Positions 4,480 through 58,925 of a stretch of DNA of 64,000 nucleotides are shown here, one piece after another (within the stretch, counting starts at the first letter, position 1; each line of letters begins with the position of its first letter). Under the pieces are notes generated by a model. The model was given only the letters and a program-made list of their open reading frames with translations, was not told the DNA's origin and ran no database searches. The DNA is from an uncultured Candidatus Saccharibacteria bacterium (lineage in GTDB: Bacteria; Patescibacteriota; Minisyncoccia; Phycocordibacterales; CAYSCM01), in contig CAYSCM010000001.1 in assembly GCA_964429815.1 (NCBI GenBank), positions 288,001 to 352,000 of the forward strand, read 5' to 3'. Both the position numbers and the translations under genes were made by a program.

Positions 4480-5003
4480 GATGCTTTTTTGCTTTTATTC
4501 CGCTCGATGAGGACCGTGAAGCCCTTGGGCGACTTTTTTATCGGGTCGGCCACCCGGTGAGGCTCCCCGATGATGAGCATGAATCGCTCGAGCCGCTCCT
4601 TCAGGAATTTTTCGTCCATGTACTTGTAGCGTCCCCAGAGGAAGAGGTCGATTTTGACGCGATCTCCCTCCCGCAGCCACTCAGAGGCCTTCTTGGCCTT
4701 GAGCGCGAGGTCGTGCTCGCCGGTGCCTATCTTGATCTGCACGCTTTTTACCTCGGTGGTGTGGGCTTTGCCTTTTCCCTCCTGCTCTTTCTTCTTTTGG
4801 TCGTACTGAAACTTACCATAGTCCATTATTTTCGCAACGGGCGGGTTGGCACCCGGACTTATCTCGATTAGATCAAGTGTCGCTTCTTTTGCCCTTCTGA
4901 GAGCCTCCGAGGTCGGGATAATACCTAAATTGGCGCCGTCAGCGCCAATGACCCGCAGTTCGGGCACTCGGATGGACTCGTTGATTCTTACTTTTTCTGC
5001 CAC
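4476..5003 (-). CDS. infC: translation initiation factor IF-3 (GTG start)
   Basis: IF3 N- and C-domain sequence. Start codon is GTG (plus-strand cac at 5001-5003). Confidence 0.9.
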   Translation of the reverse strand: MAEKVRINESIRVPELRVIGADGANLGIIPTSEALRRAKEATLDLIEISPGANPPVAKIMDYGKFQYDQKKKEQEGKGKAHTTEVKSVQIKIGTGEHDLALKAKKASEWLREGDRVKIDLFLWGRYKYMDEKFLKERLERFMLIIGEPHRVADPIKKSPKGFTVLIERNKSKKAS

Positions 5004-10732: not shown

Positions 10733-10805
10733 GGGCGTGTAGCTCAACGGTTAGAGCACCAAGCTTATACCTTGGTGGTTCCTGGTTCGAATCCAGGCAC
10801 GCCCA
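10733..10805 (+). tRNA. tRNA-Ile (anticodon TAT, reads AUA)
   Basis: Cloverleaf with acceptor gggcgtg/cacgccc, anticodon loop cuUAUac, T-loop ttcgaat. No encoded CCA. Confidence 0.7.
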
Positions 10806-12956
10806 CTATTCGAAGTGAAGGTTGGCAGACGCTTCGGCGGCTTTTGTAGCGACGTGTGGGTACTTAGCGAGGGTAGGATCCTCCTCAACAAGCGCCTCGG
10901 CCTCCGTGCGGGCCGCCTCTACCATTTTGAGATTGCTCATCGCTTCCATCGCGATATCCGAGATGCCCCACTGACGCCCTCCGCCGAGCTCGCCCGCACC
11001 ACGCAGCTTGAGATCAAATTCGGCGAGTTCAAAGCCATTTTTTGCTGTTTTGATGGCGCGTAAACGATCCGTGGTCTGCTTTCCCTTAGAATCCGCAAAC
11101 ACGTAGCAATATGCTTGATGTGTGGAGCGAAGCACGCGGCCACGAAGCTGGTGGAGTTGGGCCAGTCCAAAACGTTCCGCCCCCTCGATGACAATTACCG
11201 TCGCATTCGGAACATTCACGCCCACCTCGACAACCGACGTTGCAACCAATATCTGGATTTTATTCGCAGCGAATTGCTCCATAACGGAGTCCTTGTCCGA
11301 CGCACTCATTTTGCTGTGGAGTATGCCAACATCGAATTCCGGAAATACTTCATCAGCGAGGCGTTTCGCCTCTTTTTTCACCGATTTAGCGAGAAGAGCG
11401 AGCTCCTTGGTGGGATCGGGCTCGTCAATGCGCGGGCAAATGACGTAGGCTTGGCGGCCCGCTTTGAGCTCGGAGCGGATTTTTTCGTAGACACTTTCGC
11501 GCTCACTTGGTGCGACGATTTCTGTCACTATCGGCTTGCGTCCCGCGGGCATCTCGTCGAGGAGTGAGAGGTCGAGATCGCCGTAAATGGTAAGGGCAAG
11601 TGTGCGGGGGATGGGGGTCGCCGTCATAGAGAGAAGGTGAGGTGCAATGTCGTCCTTACGTACCAGTTTTTTCCGCTCCCTCGTGCCGAAGCGATGCTGC
11701 TCGTCGATGATGACGTAGGCAAGATTCTTAAATTTAACCGCCTTTTGAATGAGAGCGTGGGTGCCGATGAGGATGGGTATTTCGCCATTAGCGACCCACC
11801 TGAGAAGCTGTGCGCGGGAGATATCCGTAGCACCCTCGCGGTTAACTTTTGAGGGGAACTTTTTACAGCCCGAGCTCGTGAGGAGGCCGATGTTGATGGG
11901 AAGGTGCTTAAATAGCGCTATGAAAGATTCAAAGTGCTGCTTGGCGAGGATTTCGGTCGGTACCATGTAGGCGACCTGAAGATTGCCAAAATTCTGCCCC
12001 GCCGGTCGGGTCATCACGGTGGCGTACGCGGTCGCAGCGGCAACCGCGGTTTTCCCCGACCCCACATCGCCCTCGAGAAGGCGCGACATAGGGTGTCCCG
12101 ATTTCATATCAGACACAATGTTTTCAATAGATTTTTTTTGTGCACCGGTGAGGGGGAAAGAAAAGCGTGACGTAAATTCACTGATGTCGCGCTGCTCGAG
12201 TGCAATTTTGAACGATTGATGGTGTTCGTACTCACGACGCTCCTTAAACTTTCCGACCTGAATAAAAAATACTTCCTCAAAGGCGAAGCGCTTTTTTGCC
12301 GAAATTGAATCCCTAAGCGTTTTTGGGGTGTGGATCCACACCAGAGCGGCGGCTTTGGTGGGGAGGTGGTAGCGCTCGATGATCTCGGCGGGAATTGGGT
12401 CGACGATTTTCTCCAGAATGCCGCTTTTGAGGACACGGTCGATGGCATAGTAGAACCACTTCGAGGTGATGCCTCGGCTCTCGGGGTAGATGGGGTAGAG
12501 GCTCGAGGCGCTCATATCGGAAAACATGGGCCCCGTGCCGGCCTCGTTTATGTGAGCGGCTTCGATTTCGGGATTACCAAAGTACACACCCGATTTTCCC
12601 GAGCCGACTTTGCCGGCAATTTTTACAAAACTCCCGTCGGGATGCATTTTCGCGATGTAGGGCTGGTTGAACCAAATGAGTTTGACCTTGCCGCTCCCGT
12701 CCTCGAGGTAGCCCTCCGCAATGGGGACCTTGGAGCGGAAGGCGCGGCGTGTTTTGGGCCCTTTGAGAACGCCGTAGAGCGTTGCGGCCTCACCCGGGGC
12801 GAGCGTCGCCACCGTCTTCGTCCTCCCTAAATTTTCGTAGCGGGTCGGGTAGTGGGAGAGGAGGTCGTCGATCGTTGCGATGCTGAGTTTCCTGTGGGCC
12901 CGTTTTTGGACTTCTGAAATACGAAAATGTTTCTCGACGGCGTCGGTGAGTTCCAT
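10806..12956 (-). CDS. recG: ATP-dependent DNA helicase RecG
   Basis: N-terminal wedge/OB domain, GDVGSGKT Walker A, DEQHRFG motif II, helicase C-terminus. TATACT 7 nt upstream of ATG on the minus strand. Confidence 0.9.
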   Translation of the reverse strand: MELTDAVEKHFRISEVQKRAHRKLSIATIDDLLSHYPTRYENLGRTKTVATLAPGEAATLYGVLKGPKTRRAFRSKVPIAEGYLEDGSGKVKLIWFNQPYIAKMHPDGSFVKIAGKVGSGKSGVYFGNPEIEAAHINEAGTGPMFSDMSASSLYPIYPESRGITSKWFYYAIDRVLKSGILEKIVDPIPAEIIERYHLPTKAAALVWIHTPKTLRDSISAKKRFAFEEVFFIQVGKFKERREYEHHQSFKIALEQRDISEFTSRFSFPLTGAQKKSIENIVSDMKSGHPMSRLLEGDVGSGKTAVAAATAYATVMTRPAGQNFGNLQVAYMVPTEILAKQHFESFIALFKHLPINIGLLTSSGCKKFPSKVNREGATDISRAQLLRWVANGEIPILIGTHALIQKAVKFKNLAYVIIDEQHRFGTRERKKLVRKDDIAPHLLSMTATPIPRTLALTIYGDLDLSLLDEMPAGRKPIVTEIVAPSERESVYEKIRSELKAGRQAYVICPRIDEPDPTKELALLAKSVKKEAKRLADEVFPEFDVGILHSKMSASDKDSVMEQFAANKIQILVATSVVEVGVNVPNATVIVIEGAERFGLAQLHQLRGRVLRSTHQAYCYVFADSKGKQTTDRLRAIKTAKNGFELAEFDLKLRGAGELGGGRQWGISDIAMEAMSNLKMVEAARTEAEALVEEDPTLAKYPHVATKAAEASANLHFE

Positions 12957-48263: not shown

Positions 48264-48334
48264 TGCGGGATCGTCTAATGGTAGGACACCAGGTTCTGGC
48301 CCTGGTAATCTAGGTTCGAGCCCTAGTCCCGCAG
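48264..48334 (+). tRNA. tRNA-Gln (anticodon CTG)
   Basis: U1:A72 acceptor (tgcggga/tcccgca), 3-bp D-stem, anticodon loop uuCUGgc. Confidence 0.75.
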
Positions 48335-48450
48335 CAGCAGTCAGCGCAGTATCGTGCGAGACCGGAGAGCCTCAGAACTCAAAGGTCCGCCGATTCGCTG
48401 AATGTACTATTCCGTTATTGCATATCCGGTGAGTCCGGTATTCAGAACAA

Positions 48451-48493: not shown

Positions 48494-49825
48494 CTAGAGA
48501 TATCTTTTTGCTTTTAATGTGATTCTGGTTTTAAGAGTTCCTAGCAGTTCACGCTTCTCAAGAACATCGCCTTCTGTCAGGACATGTCTCACATAATGCC
48601 GTGCATCGAAGTGTTCCTCGACACGCTGCGGTGATTGCTGCCCCAAGAACATTCTTTGGAATTTCTTAGCTCGGGCGCGTTCCTCCTCAAATTTCTTGCG
48701 AATTATCGGCTCATTGAGTTCTAATTTATCTATCTGCTCTATGAGTTGTCGGACAAGCTCCTCTTCGCGAATGTAACCGGCGGCTCTACAGGCGCGATCC
48801 TTTGAGCGATTGCATCCGTAGTACAGGTACGTGGCAGTCGTGCCCGTGCTTTTGATGAGTTTGTGCTTCTCCTCGGCGCAGACACCCGAGCCGCACGCTC
48901 CGCAGGTGATGAGTCGTGTGAAGGCGAACTCCTTGGACTCACCGCGCACAATTCTGTCGCGCTTGAGTTGTGCCAGCACCTTTTCATACAGTTCACGGGT
49001 GATTATCGGTTCGTGTTTGCCCGTGTACCATTTGCCGCTCCCGATTGGGTACTCAAACTGTCCGAAGTAGAACGGCGTCTGCAGGATTTTGTAAATGTTA
49101 CTCAAAGTCAGAGGCTTATTGCTCGTTGCGCTTCGGAAATTCATATCGAACTTGAGCCAGTGATAGAGCTTTTGCCCAGACCATTTCTCGTATGCGACCT
49201 TCTCGAACATCTGCCGAACGACTGGTGCACGGTCGGGGTCGACCATGACGTACCCCTTCCGGTCGACACGTTTCTCGTTGAGGTAGCCGGTCGGCGCAGG
49301 CGCAGGCCATAAGCCCATCTCACAGCGCATGCGGAGGCCTCGCTTCACATTCACACTTTTGTTGTCGTTCTCAAGCTTTGCCTGACTGCACAAAATCATG
49401 AGAAGAAATTTCTCACTCGGTGAATTTGTGAACTTCTGGCCGTATGTTCGGATCTCGACGAGAAGTTTTTGGTCCATCAAGTCCACCAGACTCCCGAGGT
49501 CGCCTGCGTTGCGGCTCAGGCGGTCTGGGTTCCAGGTGAGTACACCGTTGAACCGTCCGGAGCGGATGTCTTTGAGAATCTCATTGAACACAGGCCGCTG
49601 GCCGGAGTCCTTCGCAGAGTGTGCTTCACGCCGGATGTCCACGATCTCGATGCCATCACGCTCCGCGATCTCGAGCATTTCCTTCACCTGAGAGTCGATG
49701 GACAGTGCCTGTTTTTCGCTCGTGTCCTCAGTCGACTTTCGAGCGTAGAGTACATACTTAACTGGTACTGCTAATTGCGGCACGAAAGTGCCTGGAGCTC
49801 TAGCCCCTCGGGTTATGGTTTCCAT
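48494..49825 (-). CDS. large serine recombinase (resolvase-domain integrase)
   Basis: N-terminal resolvase domain YARKSTED..S, recombinase domain, C-terminal CxxC...C zinc ribbon and coiled coil. Confidence 0.8.
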   Translation of the reverse strand: METITRGARAPGTFVPQLAVPVKYVLYARKSTEDTSEKQALSIDSQVKEMLEIAERDGIEIVDIRREAHSAKDSGQRPVFNEILKDIRSGRFNGVLTWNPDRLSRNAGDLGSLVDLMDQKLLVEIRTYGQKFTNSPSEKFLLMILCSQAKLENDNKSVNVKRGLRMRCEMGLWPAPAPTGYLNEKRVDRKGYVMVDPDRAPVVRQMFEKVAYEKWSGQKLYHWLKFDMNFRSATSNKPLTLSNIYKILQTPFYFGQFEYPIGSGKWYTGKHEPIITRELYEKVLAQLKRDRIVRGESKEFAFTRLITCGACGSGVCAEEKHKLIKSTGTTATYLYYGCNRSKDRACRAAGYIREEELVRQLIEQIDKLELNEPIIRKKFEEERARAKKFQRMFLGQQSPQRVEEHFDARHYVRHVLTEGDVLEKRELLGTLKTRITLKAKRYL

Positions 49826-49917
49826 ATACCCAAAGGAATGACGCCTCCCGCCAGGAAGTCCAACGTCTAAGTTGGTAACCTTCAGAGCCGATTTGACTTT
49901 GATTCATTTGATGCATT

Positions 49918-50229
49918 ATGATGGTAGGTATGGAAGATTCAGTTTCAGGGTACAAAGCAGTTAAACGGCTCGCGGTAGAGCGGCCTGATTGGCTCCCTAT
50001 CATTCGAGAGTGCTTGAATTTGCGGAAAGAGATTCACAACACTGACTTTGCTGGCGCATGGGTATATCAGCGTCTTCAAGAGAAGGGCGGACCGAAATTT
50101 TCAAATCTGCGTCTTCTTGTTAGCTTTGGCATCTTGAAGAAAGAGGCGACCTCACGCGGTGGTCGACGCGCGTACTACTCCTTCGTCGATCCTGAGGGTG
50201 TCGAGAAAGCATTAAGCGAGCTTTCATAA
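49918..50229 (+). CDS. hypothetical protein
   Basis: ORF. Preceded by the agttggtaacct motif. Confidence 0.3.
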   Translation: MMVGMEDSVSGYKAVKRLAVERPDWLPIIRECLNLRKEIHNTDFAGAWVYQRLQEKGGPKFSNLRLLVSFGILKKEATSRGGRRAYYSFVDPEGVEKALSELS

Positions 50230-50233
50230 TTTT

Positions 50234-51331
50234 ATGAAAGTCAAAGTTGCGAACACAAGCCTACACGGCGCAAAGAAAGCGAAAAAAGACGAGTTCTACA
50301 CTCAACTCGTTGATATTGAAAAAGAGCTGAAGCACTACAAAAACCAGTTTCGCGGCAAAGTCGTGTACTGCAACTGTGACGACCCGTTCGAAAGCAACTT
50401 TTTCAAATACTTTGCCGCAAATTTCAACGCGCTTGAGTTGAAAAAACTTATCACGACGAGCTTCGTCAAATCGCCTATCGCTGGTGGGCAGTTGCCGCTT
50501 TTTGAAATGCAGGGGCTAAAACCCGACGGCAAAGAACCGTTTAAAATTGCAATACGGGAGGTCCCAGACGCGGACGGCGACGGTGCAATCAATCTTGATG
50601 ATGTGAAGTATCTACTGCAGCACGACAAGAACACAGCAACCCCGCTGAAAGGAAACGGCGATTTCCGCAGCGATGAATGCATGGAATTTCTTAAAGAGGC
50701 AGACATCGTCGTGACAAACCCGCCATTCTCACTTTTTCGTGAATACATTTCGCAACTGGTAGAACACAACAAAAAATTCCTGATCATCGGCAACATCAAC
50801 GCCGTCACCTACAAAGAAGTGTTCCCTTTGATTAAGGCAAACAAACTATGGCTCGGTGCAAGTATCCATAGTGGGGACCGCGAGTTCCGAGTGCCGGAGG
50901 ACTACCCGCTAAACGCAGCTGGCTACCGAGTTGACAGCGACGGAAACAAATATATTCGCGTCAAAGGTGTGCGCTGGTTTACCAATCTCGATTACGACGA
51001 ACGCCACGACAGCGTTGTGCTTTACAAAAAGTATTCGCCAAAAGAATATCCTAAATACGATAACTACGACGCCATAAATGTGAACAAAACTGTTGATATT
51101 CCCATGGACTATAAAGGCGCTATCGGTGTACCAATTACTTTCCTTGATAAATACAGCCCCGACCAATTTACAATTCTAGGCGCACTAATCTCTGGTCCAC
51201 TTGGACAAGAGCTAGGAGCGACCAAAACAAAACAGATCAGGCCAAACGGAAAAACGACAATGGAATACGGGCCTATTATCAAGACGAAGGGTTATTACGG
51301 AAGGATTGTCATTAAAAATAAAACGCTATGA
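50234..51331 (+). CDS. N6-adenine DNA methyltransferase (EcoRI-methylase-like/phage Dam-like)
   Basis: DEFYTQ N-terminal motif and VTNPPFS (motif IV NPPF). Confidence 0.55.
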   Translation: MKVKVANTSLHGAKKAKKDEFYTQLVDIEKELKHYKNQFRGKVVYCNCDDPFESNFFKYFAANFNALELKKLITTSFVKSPIAGGQLPLFEMQGLKPDGKEPFKIAIREVPDADGDGAINLDDVKYLLQHDKNTATPLKGNGDFRSDECMEFLKEADIVVTNPPFSLFREYISQLVEHNKKFLIIGNINAVTYKEVFPLIKANKLWLGASIHSGDREFRVPEDYPLNAAGYRVDSDGNKYIRVKGVRWFTNLDYDERHDSVVLYKKYSPKEYPKYDNYDAINVNKTVDIPMDYKGAIGVPITFLDKYSPDQFTILGALISGPLGQELGATKTKQIRPNGKTTMEYGPIIKTKGYYGRIVIKNKTL

Positions 51332-52419
51332 AAATCGAGCTACAAAAAATAAAAATACGCGATGTCGTGAATGGCTACAAAGACAGCGCCGAGGAAGGCG
51401 TCGTAGCGTATGGTGGTAAGCTCGATATTCGTCCAAAGTACCAGCGTGAGTTCATCTACAAAGACAAACAGCGCGATGCGGTGCTTGATACGGTCAAGAA
51501 AGGATTTCCACTCAACGTTATGTATTGGATGGTGCGGGAGGACGGCGGTTATGAAGTGCTCGACGGCCAACAGCGCACCATCAGCATCGGCCAGTATGTC
51601 AATGGTGATTTCTCGCTCGGCGACCGCTATTTCCACAATCTCATCAAGGAGGAGCAAGAGCAGATTTTGAGCTACGAGCTGATGATTTATTTCTGTGAGG
51701 GCACAGATAAGGAACGGCTCGACTGGTTTAGGACAATCAACATCGCGGGCGAAAAGTTAACAGACCAAGAGCTTCGCAATGCTGTATACACTGGCCCTTG
51801 GCTTTCAGACGCAAAACTCAAATTCAGCAAGACGGGCTGTGCTGCCTATCACTTGGCAAACGACGGTGGGGCGCTCGTCAGTGGCTCGCCGATCCGACAG
51901 GAGTATTTGGAAACTGCACTCTCATGGATAAACAAGGGTGAGGTTGCGGCCTACATGGCGAAGCATCAGCATGACAAAGACGCTGAGAAACTATGGACTT
52001 ACTTCCAAGACGTAATTGGGTGGGCGCGAAAGACGTTCCCCAACTACCGCAAGGAAATGGCGCATGTGAACTGGGGTGAACTATACAATGAGTTCAAAGA
52101 CAAGAAACTGAATGCCGCCAAACTCGAAACCGAAGTCAAGAAACTAATGCAGGACGAGGATGTAACGAAAAAGTCCGGCATCTATCCGTATGTTTTGACC
52201 GGCAACGAGCGCGAACTTTCTATCCGCGCGTTCACCGACAAAATGAAGCGCGAGGCATACGAGCGACAAGACGGCGTCTGTCCGTTTTGCAAAAAGAAGT
52301 TTGACGTTTCAGAAATGGAAGCCGACCACATCACGCCATGGCATGAGGGCGGAAAAACAACAGCTGAAAACTGCCAGATGCTCTGCAAGCAAGATAACCG
52401 GACAAAGTCCGGGAAATGA
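51328..52419 (+). CDS. DUF262 (ParB-like) N-terminal domain fused to a C-terminal HNH endonuclease
   Basis: DGQQR motif of DUF262. C-terminal CPFC...DHITPWHEGG...NCQMLC...N HNH. ATGA overlap with the MTase. Confidence 0.6.
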   Translation: MKIELQKIKIRDVVNGYKDSAEEGVVAYGGKLDIRPKYQREFIYKDKQRDAVLDTVKKGFPLNVMYWMVREDGGYEVLDGQQRTISIGQYVNGDFSLGDRYFHNLIKEEQEQILSYELMIYFCEGTDKERLDWFRTINIAGEKLTDQELRNAVYTGPWLSDAKLKFSKTGCAAYHLANDGGALVSGSPIRQEYLETALSWINKGEVAAYMAKHQHDKDAEKLWTYFQDVIGWARKTFPNYRKEMAHVNWGELYNEFKDKKLNAAKLETEVKKLMQDEDVTKKSGIYPYVLTGNERELSIRAFTDKMKREAYERQDGVCPFCKKKFDVSEMEADHITPWHEGGKTTAENCQMLCKQDNRTKSGK

Positions 52420-52476
52420 ATCGAGAAGTCATCGAAAAAAACATGGCGACGAAATGACACAGACCATAAATATCCC

Positions 52477-53184
52477 ATGATAGAGCTACCATCTTGGCTT
52501 AAGATTGGAAAAATAATCGAAAAACTCGATTTCTCCAATTGGTTTAGTCGCCAGTTAAGAGATGATCAGCGTAAGTATGTGGGTGGGGACTACATCGAGA
52601 AAGTGGAAATACATAACCACGCTCCTTCAGGCACCATCGAGGAAGATCCGCTGGCCAGAGGACTGTATACGCTTGGTTTGGAAAGACGGCAGGTAGACAC
52701 GTACGGGGGCTTCTTCAATAGTTTTTATCTAGAAGTAGAGAAGAGACGGGAGCGTCAAATAACGAGAAGTGCTCATACCATGCTATTGGGTGCGGTTTTT
52801 GCCGTCGGGACAAAGTATCAAAACAATCCTGAGTGGAAAGAACACTGCTCATCGTCATTACGTGAAATATTCCACGAGTGGAGTGGCCCAGATGAATTCA
52901 GGCGGGACCTTGTTTCTGTCTACAACCACAGCAACGCAAAAGGAGGGCTTGCAACAGACGAGGAGGATAGTCTAACGTCATTTTGGCTTCTGTATCGATA
53001 TTTCTCTAGTATAGATCATCATCAAGCATCCGGAATACTGCACGCTCTACGCGCATTTCTTAGAGATAGCTCGCTTAAAATCGAGGACTGCGTGAATGAC
53101 GATATTTTTATTGAGAGAGCAAAAGATTTCTTCTCACATTTATCTCGTATTTCTGAAATCGCAAAGAAACGTACTGAACCATGA
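52477..53184 (+). CDS. hypothetical protein (235 aa), first gene of an unknown two-gene module
   Basis: ORF. ATGA-coupled to the next gene. Confidence 0.3.
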   Translation: MIELPSWLKIGKIIEKLDFSNWFSRQLRDDQRKYVGGDYIEKVEIHNHAPSGTIEEDPLARGLYTLGLERRQVDTYGGFFNSFYLEVEKRRERQITRSAHTMLLGAVFAVGTKYQNNPEWKEHCSSSLREIFHEWSGPDEFRRDLVSVYNHSNAKGGLATDEEDSLTSFWLLYRYFSSIDHHQASGILHALRAFLRDSSLKIEDCVNDDIFIERAKDFFSHLSRISEIAKKRTEP

Positions 53185-56177
53185 ACCAGATCGAATTACA
53201 CAACAGGATAGATGAGTACATTGCTCACGGCCCAGGGAAGGCTGCATGGACGGCTGTAAAAAAAATAACTGAGATTCACCTCGACGTGAAGAAGTATTTT
53301 TATACTAGAGCCGATGAAAAGTGGTTTGACTTGGTACGCGGAGATATTCTGAATGTGGCGAAGACAAAAGCTAGTGATCCCACGAAATACTCATATCAAA
53401 CGCCTGAGCTTGATTATTTGGCTCGGGTGGCTGAGATAATTCCACAGAAGGTCACTAAACTCATTTTAGACACTTCCATATCTAAAGAGAACTTCAATCC
53501 AGAAGTGGTTGATCGTTTTCTTTGGATTTCGAGCAAATTGCCCGCCGACCAACTTAAACGAGTAGTCGTGAAAATCCGCGATGATCAATGGATTCAACTT
53601 ATGGCGCCTTTCAATAGGTGGGTTTTTGAATATCAAAAGATGTTCGAGACGCTTGCAGTTGCCAAGGACCAGGACAGCATACTTATCCTTGCGGAAGCGG
53701 TTTTGCGGACACGTTCAAAGGATGAGCTGGCAAAGATTAACAATGGGATATCGACGGACAATCCCTTCTTCCTTTCAGACCTCAGCGAAACAGACATTTT
53801 CAGTCTTCTTGCCTCTTCTGATGATAAACATCTAGATGCTGCTCTTCGGGTCGCAACTAATGCACTCGCGGGCGTTATCAGGACTGGCGATCGAGAAGAT
53901 AACGTTTTTGAAATCGGTGAGATTTTTCACCTCTTTGATGTTGACTTTTTTTCTCTTGAATTGGGCAAGGGCCGACATTATTCACATAGAGATGAGGTCA
54001 GAGAACTGGCAGCCGTTGTCAAAACACTCGTGAATCGCTCTATTGGTAAGAGCTGCAACGATTCAAAAGAGACTCGCCGGATCTACGAACACATAGAACG
54101 TTTGCCGGATAGTCGATCCATGTGGCGACTGCGGCTCTATGTCTGGAGTCTGTGTCCGAAGGTGTTCAAGGACGAATTACAGACTGCATTTTTCAAGGGC
54201 CTAGAGTCGCGAGAAATGTTATGGCCAATTACAGGCGGTGCGGAATACGATCACGCTCTTAAAAGGTGTTTTGATGTTGTTCTGTCCGAGGAGGACCGGA
54301 AGGCATATATTCAACGTGCCTTTGAGATACTTGACGTGAATGAAGAGCACCCATACGGCTACGGTATATTTGCCAGTATCCAAAGGCATCTGTCAGAACC
54401 GCAGAAGCAGCGGGTGGAAGCCCTCTACAAGATGCCGCTTGATCCAAATTATACGCCTGAGCCTAGCGTAGGTCATTCGTATGCCGGCACAATAGTTTCG
54501 CAGTCACCCAAGGAGGCAGATGATGTCTGGGGAAAGCCGGTTCCGGAGATTGTACAAGCTCTAGAAACCCGCTTGACGCCGGAGCAACTACAAAAGATAG
54601 ACGGTAGGAAAGATTTTCTAAAACCGGTAAACGCAGAGGGGGTGGCGGATAAAATGCGGTCACAAATGAAAGAACGCACGAGTGAATATACCGCCAACGC
54701 GACTTTGTTTTTCGATAGAAAACTAATGGATCCACACTACACCTACTCCTTCTTCCGTGGCGTGGATGAGATTATTCGCTTGCATCGAGAAAAAGTGTCA
54801 GAAATAAACTGGCAGCAGATTATTGCGCTTGGTGTCGCAATTACGAAAGAAGGACAACGAGAGTCTTTTGATTTCACTAAGCGAGAAAGGGAGCACTTCG
54901 ATGCCTGGCTCGCAGGATGGATTGGTGTACACGACGGCCTCGGAGATGTTTTGCAGGATTATCTCCGAAATGATAACGGAATCACTGAGGAGTCCTTCAA
55001 TAAGAACCGGGAGGATCTTTTCAAGATTATTTGCTACCTACTCACCATACCGGATCCGGTTCCTAAGGACGAGCAACCTGAAACGGCTGGCATGACTACC
55101 ACGCCGCCCGGCGGAGAGAAATTAGTGAGCGATCCTTTCGCGATAGCCATTAACTCGGTTCGCGGCCGAGCATATCAAGCGTTCGTAATGTTTATGGAGT
55201 GGGATGGGCGTAAGTATGCGAAGGACGCAAAAGTGAAGCTATCTCCAGATGTATTGCAAGAGTACAAGGATCTTTTAGCGCGTGAAAATACCGGCGCAAT
55301 TTTCTTCATGTACGGACACTATCTACCGTTTTTCTACTTCCGCGATGTTAAGGAAGTCCGAAAGCTCCTCCCGCAAATATTTACGAGCGACAGTAAAAAG
55401 GTTCATCTGTATCTCGCGGCGTGGGAGGGTTATCTGACTCGTAGTCTCTATCGAGAGATGTTTGTCCAGCTACAGGGTGAATACGAACGAGCAATCAAAA
55501 ATAATCCTGACTCTTATCCGAAAAGAAATTACCGTGCAGACCTTGACGAAGCATTAGCAACTCATATGGCATTGGCGTACATCCACTTCGAGGATTTCAC
55601 GCTTGATTCAAGTCTGTTCAAACTTTTTTGGAGCACTCCAAACCAAAAGAGGTATCAAGAGTTTGTATCATTCATCGGACGCTATGTGATCTCGAAAGAT
55701 CATGCAAAGGAGAATCTCGCTGAAAATCCTGAGATCAAACTTTCTAAGCTTATTGACTTCTGGGATTGGACGCTTGAATACGTTAATGACCCGGATGTAT
55801 TTGCCGAATATGGTTTCTGGATGGATACAACCGGTGGTTTATATGACGATGTAACGGCACTTGCCCGAAGGATTCAGAAAACACTCAAAAAATCTAAAGG
55901 TAAAGTCGACTGGGAGATTAAGCTAATGGATTCGCTCCCGACGTTGGCGGCAGCAGTCCCCAAGGACACACTGGAGATTTTACGACTTTATCTCAAACCA
56001 CTTGATGTGAGCCCACGCAGTCGACACTTCATGCATGTCGACGCCGACCTTGTAAATATTTTCAGGACGCTGCATAAGAATCCAGAGACTCAAGACGAGA
56101 CTTATAAGTTGATCGACGAACTCCTGCCGTTGGGGAATGGGGTGTATTGGAAGTTGAAGGAGGCCTTAACGGAGTAG
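53181..56177 (+). CDS. large hypothetical protein (998 aa), no recognisable catalytic motifs
   Basis: Long uninterrupted ORF, predicted helical/repeat-rich. No Walker A or nuclease motifs seen by eye. Confidence 0.4.
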   Translation: MNQIELHNRIDEYIAHGPGKAAWTAVKKITEIHLDVKKYFYTRADEKWFDLVRGDILNVAKTKASDPTKYSYQTPELDYLARVAEIIPQKVTKLILDTSISKENFNPEVVDRFLWISSKLPADQLKRVVVKIRDDQWIQLMAPFNRWVFEYQKMFETLAVAKDQDSILILAEAVLRTRSKDELAKINNGISTDNPFFLSDLSETDIFSLLASSDDKHLDAALRVATNALAGVIRTGDREDNVFEIGEIFHLFDVDFFSLELGKGRHYSHRDEVRELAAVVKTLVNRSIGKSCNDSKETRRIYEHIERLPDSRSMWRLRLYVWSLCPKVFKDELQTAFFKGLESREMLWPITGGAEYDHALKRCFDVVLSEEDRKAYIQRAFEILDVNEEHPYGYGIFASIQRHLSEPQKQRVEALYKMPLDPNYTPEPSVGHSYAGTIVSQSPKEADDVWGKPVPEIVQALETRLTPEQLQKIDGRKDFLKPVNAEGVADKMRSQMKERTSEYTANATLFFDRKLMDPHYTYSFFRGVDEIIRLHREKVSEINWQQIIALGVAITKEGQRESFDFTKREREHFDAWLAGWIGVHDGLGDVLQDYLRNDNGITEESFNKNREDLFKIICYLLTIPDPVPKDEQPETAGMTTTPPGGEKLVSDPFAIAINSVRGRAYQAFVMFMEWDGRKYAKDAKVKLSPDVLQEYKDLLARENTGAIFFMYGHYLPFFYFRDVKEVRKLLPQIFTSDSKKVHLYLAAWEGYLTRSLYREMFVQLQGEYERAIKNNPDSYPKRNYRADLDEALATHMALAYIHFEDFTLDSSLFKLFWSTPNQKRYQEFVSFIGRYVISKDHAKENLAENPEIKLSKLIDFWDWTLEYVNDPDVFAEYGFWMDTTGGLYDDVTALARRIQKTLKKSKGKVDWEIKLMDSLPTLAAAVPKDTLEILRLYLKPLDVSPRSRHFMHVDADLVNIFRTLHKNPETQDETYKLIDELLPLGNGVYWKLKEALTE

Positions 56178-56178
56178 C

Positions 56179-56397
56179 TTAGAGGAAATACTCAACATTC
56201 TTTCCGTATAGCTTCGCCAGCTTGTTGAGCCATATTGCTTCTACCCGCAATTCTCCCAGCTCAACTTTCGACACCCACGACTGAGAGCATTTGAGTTTGT
56301 CAGCGACCTCGGCTTGTGTCAGCCCCGCATCAAGGCGGGCTTTCCTCAGTCGCTTCACGAATACAGCCCGCTCGTCAGTATGAATGGACTTTCTCAT
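56179..56397 (-). CDS. XRE-family HTH transcriptional regulator
   Basis: LTQAEVADKLKCSQSWVSKVE helix-turn-helix. Confidence 0.7.
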   Translation of the reverse strand: MRKSIHTDERAVFVKRLRKARLDAGLTQAEVADKLKCSQSWVSKVELGELRVEAIWLNKLAKLYGKNVEYFL

Positions 56398-56527
56398 ACC
56401 TATAAGCGTCTATTCCGTTATGGGATATTCCAAAATGGAATATTCAATGTTAGGCTACGAATGTCCGACAAAGGCAAGAGTTGGTAACCTCCTTCGCAAG
56501 CCTCCGAATCTAAGTTAGGAACACCAC

Positions 56528-56995
56528 ATGGACCCTATATCCAATAACAAGCGTAATACCATCCTTACCGGCGTCTCCGGCGAGTACTACGTCGCCGCTG
56601 AACTTTCGCGTCGTGGATACCTCGCCTCTATCACACTTCGCAACACCAAAGGCGTAGACATCCTCTGCTCAAACGCGGAGGCGAGTAAATCTGTAGGTAT
56701 CCAGGTAAAGGCAAAGTCGGGTAATGATCGTGTATGGATTCTCAACGAGAAAGGAGAACATTACTACGCGAACAATCTCTTTTACGTTTTTATCAACATC
56801 GACGACGGTCTCAACAAGCATCCTGAGTACACGGTCGTGCCCAGTAAGGTAGTTGCCGAGTACGCTCGCGAGTCGCACGCGAGGTGGTTAAGCGAACCGA
56901 AGAAGGACGGCAGCGCTCGCAAAGACACGACTATGCGGAAGTTTCAGGATCCGGAGGAGAAGTATCTTGGTCGGTGGGATCTGTTGGGTCTTTGA
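56528..56995 (+). CDS. PD-(D/E)xK nuclease superfamily protein (DUF4365-like)
   Basis: GEYYVAAEL ... GVDIL ... IQVKAK resembling the D...(E/Q)xK core. Confidence 0.4.
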   Translation: MDPISNNKRNTILTGVSGEYYVAAELSRRGYLASITLRNTKGVDILCSNAEASKSVGIQVKAKSGNDRVWILNEKGEHYYANNLFYVFINIDDGLNKHPEYTVVPSKVVAEYARESHARWLSEPKKDGSARKDTTMRKFQDPEEKYLGRWDLLGL

Positions 56996-57560
56996 ATTCG
57001 TTCCCGTATTTCTCATTCAACCTCTCGAGTGTCTTTTTGCTAATAACGATCTGCCCGTTTTCGTCTGAAAATGCTTCAATTAGGTCTTGTTTTCTCTGTC
57101 TCTCAACTTCGTCAAGGAATTTCTTCAACGAAGCCTCTCTGACAAGTAACTTCCCGTCGGGGCCGGTGAACATCCTCCGCAATTTCTTCAGGTCGATTTC
57201 CATCTGGTAGTCGGGACCGAATTCCTCATAGTCGTCGAACTTATCCATGAGCGGTATCTTCTCCTCCTCGCCGCGAAGCTTCGGGCTGTAGAACTTGCTG
57301 TTGTGCGTGAGGAAGAATTTGGAGTCCGCCTTGTCCCCGTTGTTGATCCCTTTGATGATGTTCGACTCCGCCTTCTCGCTCACGGCCTCCCGGCTCACTC
57401 TCCGCACGGTTTCCGCGGCCCGCTTGAATTCCGGGTCGTCGTGCATCCACCGGTATATGGTCATGCGCGTAACGTCGACCTTTCGCGCGGCCGTGCCGAT
57501 AAACGGCGTGGTCTCCAACGCCTTGAGGAATTCCTCGCGTTTATCGGCACCGTGCGTCAT
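56931..57560 (-). CDS. phage terminase small-subunit-like HTH protein
   Basis: N-terminal FIGTAARKVDVTRMTIYRWM HTH typical of TerS. Acidic C-terminus. Confidence 0.35.
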   Translation of the reverse strand: MTHGADKREEFLKALETTPFIGTAARKVDVTRMTIYRWMHDDPEFKRAAETVRRVSREAVSEKAESNIIKGINNGDKADSKFFLTHNSKFYSPKLRGEEEKIPLMDKFDDYEEFGPDYQMEIDLKKLRRMFTGPDGKLLVREASLKKFLDEVERQRKQDLIEAFSDENGQIVISKKTLERLNEKYGNEFKDPTDPTDQDTSPPDPETSA

Positions 57561-57563
57561 AAA

Positions 57564-58925
57564 CTAGCCGATCTTCACGCGCTTCTTGCCTGTGAACTTC
57601 TCCCAGCGATTGAGAATTACTTCGGCGTACACAGGTGATTTCTCAATCAGGAAACAACGCCGACCAAGCGTGATGGATGCGATGAGCGTCGACCCGCTCC
57701 CGCCGAACGGCTCAAGCACGAGCTGCCCGCGCTTCGTGAGCGTCTTGATGTACGGCACGAGAATCTCGATCGGTTTTACGCCGAAGATGATCGCTTGGCC
57801 TGAAGATTTTTCATCAGCGGCATTGAACTCGATGAAATCGGTCGGGCAGTATTTCTTGTCTTTGCCGTAGCTCTCCCAGTGTGCGCCCTTGCCGTCAATG
57901 GCAAAGAGTGCCGTTTGGTACTCGTTCTCGTACAACTCCTGTTCGTTCTCGAGATTCAGACCGCTGTACTCCTCGCTCGTGCCGACCATCGCGATGTCGT
58001 GCTTGGAGAAGAACTTATTGCGCCCCGCGTATCCTTGGTTGCGGTTCGGCAAGTGCCACACGATCATATTGCGCACCTTCCAGTGCTTTTCCATCTCACT
58101 CCAGATTTCGCGAATGTTCTTCCAGTTTTCGTAGCAGATGATTGAGAAGTCCTTATTCGCAACTTTCGCAACATTGCTCATCCATTTCTCGGTGAAATCG
58201 GCTGGCAATGATTCTGTTTCAAGATAGCGACGGTTCTTCTTCGAGCCGAACCCAACCGTTGGCTCGCCATTGCGGGTCTTGCCTTTGAGGTAGTCCAGCC
58301 GATACGGAGGGTCCGTCATAACCATGTCCGCCTTTTCGGACATGAGCTTGAGCACATCTTCTTCGATAGTGCTGTCCCCACAGAGAAGCCGCGAACCGTC
58401 GAGCTCGTACACGTCGCCCTTCCGCACACCGATTGTTTTGATGTCGAGCTTTTTGAGCTCTTTCTCAAGTGAGAATTCCGCCTCCGTAGAATCTTCCTCA
58501 AAGATGTTGTCGAGTTCTTCGGAATCGAAGCCGACAGCCTCAAGGAATGCTTCGTCGAACTCGGCGAGCAACAGGTCGTAATCCCACTCACCGACAGCCT
58601 TGTTGAGGCGGAGGCAGAGGTCCTTCTCTTTTTCGATATCGGCAATGTGGACGAAGACGCACGGCACCTCCTTGTACCCGAGATCTTTCATGACTTCGAA
58701 GCGGAGGTTGCCGCCAATAATGACGTTCTCGCGCTCCTTGGCGCGGTTTACTACAAGGGGATCAACACTTCCATGCCGCTCAAGACTCTCGCGCACGGGC
58801 TTCTTCGTGTCATCGTTGACCAAACGAGGATTATATTCGGCGTGCTTAAGGCTGGTAATGGGAACATATTCGACCCACAGTTTGTGAGCCGTATCCGCAG
58901 AGACTGCGACAGTGTTTTTAGTCAT
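57564..58925 (-). CDS. ParB-like nuclease domain fused to N6/N4 DNA methyltransferase (phage-type orphan MTase)
   Basis: N-terminal ParB/Srx region. DPPY motif IV and EPFGGSGST motif I. Confidence 0.7.
   Translation of the reverse strand: MTKNTVAVSADTAHKLWVEYVPITSLKHAEYNPRLVNDDTKKPVRESLERHGSVDPLVVNRAKERENVIIGGNLRFEVMKDLGYKEVPCVFVHIADIEKEKDLCLRLNKAVGEWDYDLLLAEFDEAFLEAVGFDSEELDNIFEEDSTEAEFSLEKELKKLDIKTIGVRKGDVYELDGSRLLCGDSTIEEDVLKLMSEKADMVMTDPPYRLDYLKGKTRNGEPTVGFGSKKNRRYLETESLPADFTEKWMSNVAKVANKDFSIICYENWKNIREIWSEMEKHWKVRNMIVWHLPNRNQGYAGRNKFFSKHDIAMVGTSEEYSGLNLENEQELYENEYQTALFAIDGKGAHWESYGKDKKYCPTDFIEFNAADEKSSGQAIIFGVKPIEILVPYIKTLTKRGQLVLEPFGGSGSTLIASITLGRRCFLIEKSPVYAEVILNRWEKFTGKKRVKIG

Follow-up and report, generated by a model that had tools for sequence, protein, structure and literature searches.

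A probable two-gene restriction-modification cassette pairing an EcoRI-family methyltransferase with a DUF262-HNH nuclease

INTRODUCTION

Current discussion of nucleases with a DUF262 domain casts them as modification-dependent (GmrSD, BrxU) or modification-sensing (SspE), and reviews treat the domain in GmrSD, BrxU, SspE, Menshen, Dazbog and PD-T4-2 only; a general remark that COG1479 occurs fused to HNH and linked to restriction-modification (R-M) systems was made by Makarova et al. 2013. Full-text literature searches found no biochemical description of a DUF262-HNH Type II enzyme. What role, then, might such a protein have when its gene overlaps that of a methyltransferase? The question is raised by two genes in the window (the whole 64-kb stretch of DNA that was analysed, from an uncultured Candidatus Saccharibacteria bacterium). 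The first-pass annotation had described them as an EcoRI-like adenine methyltransferase, here called M, and a DUF262-HNH protein, here called R, and had proposed that R is the restriction partner of M in an atypical arrangement. Our answer, to which we give a probability of about three in four, is that M and R constitute a self-contained two-gene R-M system. The cassette is a new copy of an already catalogued family.

RESULTS

The cassette and its island

Features of the locus are collected in Table 1. At the M/R junction, CTATGAAA, the start codon of R (ATG, 51328-51330) overlaps the stop codon of M (TGA, 51329-51331), so that the ATGA overlap noted in the first-pass annotation is indeed present, and it suggests translational coupling of R to M. 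An overlap of 4 bp is the commonest junction among related loci (26 of 82); nine of the 82 have an 11-bp overlap, and in about 72 the junction is 24 bp or less. Because its start overlaps the stop of M, synthesis of R would require a transcript that includes M, and the two proteins are probably produced in concert. Scans for promoters and terminators gave no excess over shuffled expectation and no + strand terminator after R; a promoter-like match at 49893-49922 (TTGACT-18-TATGAT, 10/12) is of a kind found six times where 4.8 were expected from shuffling.

Table 1. Positions of the features discussed, numbered from the first nucleotide of the window
Feature	Coordinates	Strand	Evidence or remark
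tRNA-Gln	48264..48335		
19-nt imperfect direct repeat, left copy; candidate island boundary, just downstream of tRNA-Gln	48407..48425	.	
Large serine recombinase of the 8-kb island	48494..49825	-	Resolvase, Recombinase, Zn_ribbon_recom domains
Upstream non-coding leader of the cassette; start of the high-identity block common with a related island	49870..49917	+	blastn vs L004
103-aa ORF, inherited with M and R in the lineage	49918..50229	+	96% identical in L004 and L005, directly upstream of M
M, EcoRI-family N6-adenine DNA methyltransferase (predicted), 365 aa	50234..51331	+	PF13651 E 5.2e-149; PADLOC MTase_II E 3e-129
DEFYT motif of M, aa 19-23	50288..50302	+	motif position; block conservation
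NPPF catalytic motif IV of M, aa 162-165	50717..50728	+	motif position; block conservation
ATGA overlap, M stop / R start	51328..51331	+	sequence
R, DUF262-HNH nuclease, predicted restriction subunit, 363 aa	51328..52419	+	PADLOC REase_II PDLC03418 E 2.7e-140
DUF262 / ParB-Srx-like domain of R, aa 34-154	51427..51789	+	PF03235 GmrSD_N E 2.9e-17
DGQQR of R, aa 79-83	51562-51576	+	motif position
All-helical middle domain of R, aa 156-300	51793..52227	+	AF2 secondary structure
Zinc-finger HNH domain of R, aa 318-361	52279..52410	+	PF01844 E 9.9e-13
XRE-type HTH gene	56179..56397		
19-nt repeat, right copy; candidate island boundary, just past the XRE-type HTH gene	56410..56428	.	

The cassette and the 103-aa ORF sit in an 8-kb serine-recombinase island beside the tRNA-Gln gene. 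Its boundaries are candidates, marked by two copies of a 19-nt repeat that match at 17 of 19 positions and lie 8003 bp apart, and short two-copy repeats of this kind may be due to chance. A recombinase is found at the same position in two other loci (L004 and L005). In the comparison with L004, nucleotide identity by blastn was 88% over 49870-52420, a block that holds the 103-aa ORF, M and R, against 66-68% in the flanks, and a block at 56178-56444 was also common to the two (79% identity); the cassette looks to have been recently exchanged between related islands. The mobile island holds other defence-like genes, and downstream of the cassette lie a terminase-small-subunit-like gene (at 4.5 kb) and a phage-type ParB-methyltransferase fusion (at 5 kb).

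For the 103-aa ORF there was no match in Pfam, NCBIfam, PHROG or PADLOC. Its single-sequence AF2 model (pLDDT 70.6) has the order helix-helix-helix-helix-hairpin-helix, and the best Foldseek matches, all winged-helix (ArsR/SmtB, MarR, PadR, Orc1-WH), are weak (E >= 0.05); on this modelling the product probably binds DNA through a winged helix and is a candidate regulator. In other loci its position is taken by HTH_3 or MerR regulators, as in Gracilibacteria with the order HTH_3, M, R, or by nothing, and the ORF is outside the conserved family-wide module. No conserved controller was found among 26 small ORFs upstream of M, which yielded only two HTH_3 and two MerR/HTH_17 proteins.

The methyltransferase

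A Pfam search aligned residues 10-363 of M with positions 2-345 of the 345 in PF13651 (EcoRI_methylase), scoring 496.7 bits against a gathering cut-off of 26.4, which marks it as a full-length family member, and the PADLOC profile PDLC03297 (MTase_II) matched as well. Of the characterised enzymes, the nearest to M is M.EcoRI, whose recognition sequence is GAATTC. The two have PF13651 in common and are 50% identical over 322 aligned positions (the reference being genuine, a plasmid copy adjoining R.EcoRI), with the DEFYT block, the NPPF block and the C-terminal YPKYDNYDAINV and GVPITFL blocks nearly identical. Among 64 family methyltransferases, mean identity to the window sequence was 82% for the DEFYT block and 83% for the NPPF block (DIVVTNPPF); the family alignment also contains three hypervariable, indel-rich blocks, at residues 76-135, 211-240 and 316-345. 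A PDB sequence search found no related solved structure. The claim of an EcoRI-like adenine methyltransferase with DEFYT and NPPF motifs thus holds on all these points and, judged by its sequence, M is an EcoRI-family enzyme and not a Dam. Its full-length PF13651 match with NPPF gives the pair one trait of Type II systems, namely a methyltransferase with intact motifs for catalysis and AdoMet binding. The resemblance to the EcoRI system does not extend to the nuclease, which there has the PD-(D/E)XK fold and here is an unrelated DUF262-HNH protein, nor to gene order, which is R then M on the EcoRI plasmid and M then R, with overlap, in this cassette.

The nuclease

The whole of R (residues 1-363) aligned with positions 1-372 of the 372 in the PADLOC profile PDLC03418 at 466 bits, and this curated Type II restriction-enzyme profile bears the label 'REase_II', which is the database authors' filing, an annotation and not proof of activity. 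None of the Pfam RE_* families matched R. The family assignments of M and R, as read from sequence, are far beyond chance. With PDLC03418 and PDLC03297 the family of R has already been filed publicly as a Type II restriction enzyme.

The domain content of R can be read directly, and the DUF262 ParB-like N-terminus and C-terminal HNH of the first-pass annotation were both recovered, separated by an all-helical middle domain (Table 1). The C-terminus is a PF01844 / PF14279 HNH with CxxC and CxxxC zinc ligands, in which C318xxC321 (CPFC), D333-H334, N348, C349xxxC353 and N357 can be placed; the nuclease active site (D333, H334, N348, N357) and the zinc cysteines are thus intact, and they are conserved. 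R also carries DHITP, which resembles the (D/E)HxxP context of DUF1524 nucleases but is a generic HNH feature. Motif conservation is likewise a direct observation: DGxQR, H334 and N348 are invariant among 57 diverse homologues, so that four of the five positions of DGQQR (D79, G80, Q82, R83) do not vary. In the AF2 model (mean pLDDT 92.8) the N-domain is nearest BrxU and SspE and resembles ParB CTP-switch folds, and the C-domain is nearest the Cas9 and McrA HNH domains. The DGQQR pocket suggests nucleotide binding, and the DUF262 / ParB-Srx-like domain is predicted to be an NTP-binding switch. The middle domain, with a mean identity to the window sequence of 0.41 vs 0.49 in each flanking domain, almost no indels and no hypervariable segment, is possibly a DNA-recognition or linker domain.

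HNH-type Type II enzymes such as KpnI, Hpy99I and PacI have a ββα-metal HNH site, often with zinc cysteines, and a cognate methyltransferase. R is likened to them, by description only, in its HNH site and its pairing with a methyltransferase; to our knowledge, these enzymes have no ParB/DUF262 nucleotide-binding domain. With GmrSD it has in common a DUF262 domain with DGQQR. The C-terminus of GmrSD and BrxU is DUF1524, whereas that of R is a PF01844 zinc-finger HNH and gave no Pfam match to PF07510 (DUF1524); R is also shorter, at about 360 aa vs about 580, and GmrSD and BrxU work by themselves, their target being modified cytosines, whereas R is coupled to a methyltransferase in every informative locus (see below). 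Since it is without DUF1524 and never without a methyltransferase in those loci, R is outside the GmrSD family. Its N-terminal DUF262 also matches PADLOC NsnA (8e-24) and PD-T4-2_A (3e-10) over residues 30-158. The likeness to Menshen NsnA and to PD-T4-2 protein A is confined to this domain; neither system has a cognate methyltransferase, and their partners are different ones (in Menshen, an OLD-type nuclease).

Pairing of M and R across genomes, plasmids and phage

A genome scan yielded 80 loci with R relatives, spanning Patescibacteria (CPR), Proteobacteria, Bacteroidota, Firmicutes, Actinobacteria, Spirochaetes and archaea. Three were left out as uninformative because the contig held too little upstream DNA; an EcoRI-family methyltransferase was directly upstream on the same strand in 77 of the 77 others. 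The pair was also present in 30 of the best 30 plasmid matches (61% down to 38% identity) and, with a 4-bp overlap, in Flavobacterium phage laban6-1. The R family comprises at least 8000 matches and at least 522 clusters (50% identity, E below 1e-30), ranging from Patescibacteria (CPR) to Enterococcus plasmids and archaea, and the nearest relatives of the window protein are from Patescibacteria (CPR). Given so wide a distribution and the existing Type II entry in a defence database, calling the arrangement 'atypical' was an overstatement.

This linkage of M to R throughout the family is observed directly, as are their gene coupling and their mobility, and it supplies a further trait of Type II systems, namely separate, adjacent genes for methyltransferase and endonuclease that are co-inherited. 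Annotation of the 7.5-kb plasmid pLa3_1 shows just four genes, for a MerR regulator, M, R and rep; such carriage on minimal plasmids, together with mobility, is behaviour typical of mobile R-M systems. In Dietzia the pair adjoins Shedu and Abi genes. A natural fusion of M with R, seen in one protein, likewise favours the R-M reading. No third conserved gene was found, the largest neighbour family occurring in four of 83 loci.

The linkage bears most heavily on the idea that M and R are neighbours by chance, R being a stand-alone Type IV GmrSD-like modification-dependent nuclease and M an unrelated solitary phage or Dam-like methyltransferase. Such a reading could appeal to DUF262 being best known from Type IV enzymes, to the other defence-like genes of the mobile island and to the phage-type fusion downstream. 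We nonetheless hold it to be very improbable, and it is already contradicted by the linkage data: the pair recurs in every informative genome locus and every one of the best 30 plasmid matches, mostly with overlapping codons, R is without DUF1524, M is half identical to M.EcoRI, and a modification-dependent nuclease fixed to a methyltransferase would turn against the cell that carries it. The first-pass annotation had itself named a solitary phage Dam beside a GmrSD-type enzyme as the scenario that would undo its proposal. That scenario fails, the HNH domain not being DUF1524 and M being no Dam, and its failure, the conservation of the pair and the PADLOC entries for both proteins support R as the restriction partner of M.

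Service to a mobile element is a different matter, in which the HNH protein would be a homing or DNA-packaging endonuclease and M would shield the element from host restriction. The pair does occur in a phage and on plasmids, and the terminase-small-subunit-like gene near this cassette would fit. Most M-R loci are, however, chromosomal and without phage genes nearby, no terminase or other neighbour is conserved, and packaging HNH proteins are small and have no DUF262. Even in laban6-1, where the pair adjoins a tape-measure gene, the annotated 7-kb surroundings contain no terminase gene, and we judge this explanation extremely improbable.

In two loci, a Chryseobacterium plasmid (L090) and a metagenome-assembled genome (L054), M is frameshifted and R intact, which would be unexpected if R killed cells that have no M. 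Any one of three things could explain them: an error in sequencing, protection by a second methyltransferase, or an R that is inactive. Loss of M without self-killing would also fit an SspE-like scheme, in which R reads host m6A as 'self' and the mark stimulates or tunes its NTPase and nickase instead of simply blocking it, so that defence would require host DNA to carry the mark. A genetic link between a DUF262 nuclease and a DNA-modification module is indeed known from SspE, whose NTPase is triggered by the modification, and the characterised DUF262 nucleases are all modification-dependent or modification-stimulated, which counts against a modification-blocked R. We still find the scheme quite improbable. 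The overlapping M-then-R order and the minimal plasmids are the classic layout of modification-blocked systems, and the C-terminal nuclease of R is of a different family (PF01844) from that of SspE (DUF262 + DUF1524). The SspABCD-SspE mark, moreover, is a phosphorothioate made by four proteins, whereas the mark here is predicted to be m6A from a single methyltransferase. SspE is stimulated by its mark; in this comparison, blocking would be the simpler reading for R.

Relative conservation and the recognition sequence

Mean pairwise identity was 63.1% for R and 55.2% for M, and of 2016 pairs 93% had R as the more similar protein; Type II systems usually show the opposite. A stronger statement, that R is much more conserved than M, was rejected: the first comparison was biased, its loci having been chosen on R similarity, and the all-pairs difference is real but modest. 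Identities of M and R are correlated (Spearman 0.37). Conservation of R is even over its three domains; indels are almost absent, and no stretch varies in the manner of a recognition segment.

These patterns raise another possibility, one that we regard as unlikely, namely that R has no sequence recognition of its own and is the NTP-switched nuclease subunit of an M-R complex, like Type III Res/Mod or Type I HsdR; M would then find unmethylated sites, and the ParB-like domain of R would be a nucleotide-gated clamp or switch licensing HNH cutting. Besides the higher and even conservation of R, the three hypervariable blocks of M point this way, as do the tight translational coupling of the genes, the likeness of the R N-domain to ParB CTP-switch folds, the existence of one natural M-R fusion protein, and the two loci with frameshifted M, which would be tolerable if R needs M. 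On the other side, the conservation gap is modest and the identities correlate, one specificity common to all members could suffice, insertions of 0.9-1.9 kb (even a resistance gene) are tolerated between M and R in some loci, and the fusion is a single case with a degenerate catalytic motif, FPSF instead of NPPF.

Site avoidance revealed no recognition sequence, either in the 64-kb window or in the pooled DNA of about 80 host loci; the most avoided palindromes were the generic words GATC, GGCC and CTAG. GAATTC, the M.EcoRI site, was unremarkable in the pool (observed/expected 0.72), as were CAATTG and AATT; the window has 16 copies vs 20.8 expected, which is not clear avoidance.

DISCUSSION

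As we picture the two-gene R-M system, M would methylate adenine (N6) of host DNA within a defined sequence, and R would cut incoming DNA without that mark through its zinc-finger HNH site (D333, H334, N348, N357). From the genetics of the pair we infer that methylation by M blocks R, and we likewise infer the NTP dependence of R and the specificity. By analogy with BrxU, GmrSD and SspE, the DGQQR pocket of the N-domain may bind and hydrolyse nucleotide and so gate the nuclease; if it does, R would be NTP-regulated and not a classic Mg-only Type IIP enzyme. Nucleotide binding by R, if confirmed, would be a departure from the classical Type II definition (Mg2+ only, without NTP hydrolysis). A more far-reaching version, which we think unlikely, would make R a nucleotide-switched restriction subunit of reversed polarity relative to GmrSD, BrxU and SspE (methyl-blocked), perhaps relying on M for sequence recognition and using its ParB-like domain as an NTP-gated clamp or switch; if true, the cassette would amount to a compact counterpart of Type III restriction in two genes, with a ParB fold replacing the helicase motor.

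The family to which this cassette belongs is very large and widely transferred, and in it a DUF262 nucleotide-binding domain and a classical HNH are permanently coupled to an EcoRI-family methyltransferase. In annotation, such genes should be called an R-M pair and not 'Type IV GmrSD-like plus orphan methylase'. The sequence marked by these common methyltransferases would aid the reading of methylomes from uncultured bacteria, and from the behaviour of even one member it could be learned whether an NTP switch of the ParB/Srx type is able to control a restriction enzyme that modification blocks.

Conservation of the methyltransferase–nuclease pairing

The pairing of the methyltransferase gene (M) with the DUF262-HNH nuclease gene (R) is real, which clearly answers our central question. 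The R family is very large, with at least 8000 candidates at E 1e-5 (the best 120 all at least 82% identical) and 522 representatives below 1e-30 in a library clustered at 50% identity. Scanning one genome per species gave 80 loci at R identities of 58–84%, from Patescibacteria (candidate phyla radiation, CPR), Gamma-, Alpha- and Epsilonproteobacteria, Bacteroidota, Firmicutes, Actinobacteria, Spirochaetes, Chlorobi, Nitrospirae, Methanobacterium and one Pacearchaeote. An M homologue was found upstream of R on the same strand at 77 of these (tblastn with the window M); the remaining three say nothing on pairing, because R lies too close to the contig end (11, 55 or 1238 bp). Among annotated plasmids, each of the best 30 matches (61% down to 38% identity) is immediately preceded by a gene for an 'adenine-specific methyltransferase EcoRI family protein', frameshifted in one case, and Flavobacterium phage laban6-1 carries the same pair at 39.8% identity with a 4-bp overlap. 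No third conserved gene was found among 83 loci, where the commonest neighbour family occurred four times. The 7.5-kb Ligilactobacillus agilis plasmid pLa3_1 carries four annotated genes and no more (a MerR regulator, M, R and rep). In Dietzia, Shedu and Abi genes adjoin the pair within a defence island.

The first-pass annotation had the two window ORFs coupled by an ATGA, which is borne out in full: both lie on the + strand at the stated coordinates, and the start codon of R (ATG) shares bases with the stop codon of M (TGA; CTATGAAA). Elsewhere the overlap is 4 bp at 26 loci and 11 bp at 9, and about 72 of the 82 loci have a junction that spans no more than 24 bp. It is also an occasional insertion site, since 0.9–1.9 kb inserts, for example RhuM-like genes, separate M from R in a few loci. 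Such a gene lies between M and R in locus L010 (2404–3992) and immediately 5' of R in L014 (189–836); in Enterococcus dispar plasmid pK205-4b-C (L091, 61–4699) the intervening gene is optrA, for oxazolidinone/phenicol resistance. One 688-aa protein from the 50%-identity library (P0146) joins EcoRI_methylase, GmrSD_N and HNH naturally in one chain; in its methyltransferase half NPPF is degenerate and reads FPSF. Four loci from Gracilibacteria, Peribacteria and Saccharibacteria metagenome-assembled genomes (MAGs; L019, L020, L029 and L031) had no unbroken ORF over the methyltransferase match under genetic code 11; for L019 and L020, both Gracilibacteria, reassignment of UGA would plausibly account for this.

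Coordinates of the pair, its island and other features of the window
Feature	Position	Strand	Remarks
tRNA-Ile	10733..10806	+	anticodon TAT (ARAGORN)
tRNA-Gln	48264..48335		first element in island order
19-nt repeat, first copy	48407..48425		
Large serine recombinase	48494..49825	-	domain matches
103-aa ORF	49918..50229		between recombinase and M
M, methyltransferase (365 aa)	50234..51331	+	PF13651, PADLOC PDLC03297
R, nuclease (363 aa)	51328..52419	+	PF03235, PF01844
235-aa ORF	52477..53184	+	directly downstream of R
998-aa ORF	53181..56177	+	ATGA overlap with 235-aa ORF
XRE-type HTH gene	56179..56397	-	last gene of island
19-nt repeat, second copy	56410..56428		
phrog_29029 protein	56528..56995	+	neighbour of ParB_N fusion
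Terminase-small-subunit-like HTH protein	56931..57560	-	neighbour of ParB_N fusion
ParB_N + N6_N4_Mtase fusion protein (453 aa)	57564..58925	-	outside island

Domains and active sites

The initial description of M as an EcoRI-like enzyme with DEFYT and NPPF motifs holds: M matches EcoRI_methylase at full length (residues 10–363 against profile positions 2–345 of 345, Pfam E 5.2e–149) and the PADLOC Type II methyltransferase profile (E 3e–129), and the two motifs lie at residues 19–23 and 162–165. The genuine M.EcoRI with which we compared it, from an E. coli plasmid and adjoining an annotated 'type-2 restriction enzyme EcoRI', is 50% identical over 322 aligned positions. In the C-terminal blocks YPKYDNYDAINV and GVPITFL, M hardly differs from M.EcoRI, which makes GAATTC or a similar site a reasonable guess to begin with for the target; word-avoidance statistics neither supported nor excluded such a site. 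M is an unremarkable member of the EcoRI methyltransferase family.

The DUF262 N-terminus and C-terminal HNH ascribed to R were likewise recovered, as matches to GmrSD_N (formerly DUF262; residues 34–154, E 2.9e–17) and HNH (residues 318–361, E 9.9e–13), with the motifs RPKYQREF, DGQQR (79–83), QELRN, CPFC (318–321), DHITPW (333–338), NCQMLC (348–353) and N357. An AlphaFold2 model built on an alignment of 57 diverse homologues (36–84% identical to the window R) had a mean pLDDT of 92.8 and showed three parts: an α/β N-domain that ends near residue 155, a wholly helical middle (156–300) and a small ββα HNH domain. Foldseek placed ParB and Noc CTP-binding domains on top and BrxU fifth. Residues Q39, R40, D79, G80, Q82, R83, C318, H334 and N348 are invariant among the 57 and D333, C353 and N357 at least 90% conserved, which argues for family-wide selection on the predicted nucleotide-binding pocket as well as on the nuclease centre.

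Type of system

R matches the PADLOC-DB profile 'REase_II, Type II restriction enzyme' end to end (residues 1–363 against 1–372 of 372, E 2.7e–140); database curators have therefore already filed the family as a Type II restriction enzyme, a label that is an annotation and does not prove function. Constant co-inheritance of two genes, mobility between unrelated contexts and carriage by minimal plasmids are how a restriction-modification (R-M) system behaves. This constant linkage, mobility and minimal-plasmid carriage, together with the PADLOC match, support the earlier proposal that R is the restriction partner of M. The pair is catalogued as Type II R-M and probably works like one.

The arrangement named beforehand as one that would refute this proposal, a solitary phage Dam beside a GmrSD-type enzyme, is rejected, given the relationship of M to M.EcoRI and the lack of DUF1524 in R. 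The N-domain and overall layout of R are common to the GmrSD/BrxU/SspE group, but R has no DUF1524, the domain that defines GmrSD, and does not occur alone; with both of these hallmarks absent, it should not be placed in that family.

Several features sit less easily with a plain Type II system. R is the more conserved of the two: in an all-pairs comparison of 64 loci, which is fair despite the choice of loci by R similarity, R averaged 63.1% identity over the 2016 pairs against 55.2% for M (58% in the gap-poor core of M), with R the higher in 93% of pairs and a Spearman correlation of 0.37. R conservation is even over its three domains (mean identities to the window sequence of 0.49, 0.41 and 0.49) with almost no indels, whereas M has three hypervariable, indel-rich blocks. 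At two loci M is frameshifted and R intact, one on a complete plasmid (L090, Chryseobacterium taklimakanense NZ_CP034172.1, 2068–2891) and one in a MAG (L054, 2460–3450), a state that one would not expect if R were a lethal restriction enzyme and that could reflect sequencing error, phase variation or a need of R for M. These three observations leave room for an R that finds its targets through M, in the manner of Type III systems, or for an SspE-like R whose activity the mark tunes. Neither alternative is favoured over the simple R-M model; one specificity common to all members, plus sequencing errors, would account for the same data.

What we observe directly is the domains with their motifs, two conserved active sites, an M gene followed by an overlapping R gene, linkage of the two throughout the family, and mobility of the pair. 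In the mechanism that we propose under the R-M model, M would methylate adenine within a defined sequence of the host's DNA, R would use its HNH site to cut DNA without that mark, and the overlap would tie R production to M, so that no nuclease is made without its antidote. By analogy with the nucleotide-gated nucleases reported for BrxU, GmrSD and SspE, the DGQQR pocket may bind and hydrolyse nucleotide and so gate the nuclease; if it does, R would not be a textbook Mg-only Type IIP enzyme.

The local island

The cassette sits in a small mobile island. An imperfect direct repeat of 19 nt, its two copies 8003 bp apart and alike at 17 of the 19 positions, encloses the serine recombinase, R-M cassette, cargo genes and XRE HTH gene (8.0 kb). 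The copies may be the attachment sites by which an 8-kb island integrated next to tRNA-Gln. A related island, L004, encodes a nuclease 95% identical to R. The block 49870–52420, exactly the 103-aa ORF, M and R, has 88% DNA identity to L004 6544–9093, whereas the recombinase and neighbouring pyrG reach only 66–68%, from which the cassette looks to have been exchanged more recently than its surroundings. After R, L004 has a 557-aa protein and a DUF4238 protein, unlike the window's genes; this slot therefore holds variable cargo. In the window its two ORFs may be a second, uncharacterised defence pair. For the 998-aa protein, the match to the PADLOC Dsr1 profile is limited to the C-terminal part of that profile (residues 420–932, E 7.5e–19), with no SIR2 domain and no Pfam match, and the 235-aa protein had no match whatever.

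The 103-aa protein, for which no family match was found, gave a low-confidence model (pLDDT 70.6) of winged-helix layout, its best, non-significant structural matches being ArsR, MarR, PadR and Orc1 winged-helix domains; it may be a lineage-specific regulator. In other lineages the position upstream of M holds HTH_3 or MerR genes, or nothing (two HTH_3 and two MerR/HTH_17 among 26 small upstream ORFs). In the Gracilibacteria loci L001–L003 the position is taken by an HTH_3 gene (4702–4917; 71 aa, XRE/C-protein-like) that lies upstream of M at a distance of 4 bp, giving the order C-M-R, and is unrelated to the window's ORF.

Just outside the island, the region of the ParB_N-methyltransferase fusion looks like a prophage remnant with a phage-type solitary methyltransferase. 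The window also has a tRNA-Ile with anticodon TAT, which is uncommon in bacteria.

Place of the family among DUF262 proteins

It was noted in general terms in 2013 that COG1479/DUF262 domains occur joined to HNH nucleases and in association with R-M systems, and recent reviews of DUF262 in defence treat only GmrSD, BrxU, SspE, Menshen, Dazbog and PD-T4-2. A full-text literature search found no paper characterising a DUF262-HNH restriction enzyme; the family is known and catalogued, and its biochemistry appears unexplored. The window's instance is itself ordinary, and the family is a good, easily testable case in which to ask how a ParB/Srx-type nucleotide switch would work in a nuclease that is predicted to be modification-blocked rather than modification-dependent.
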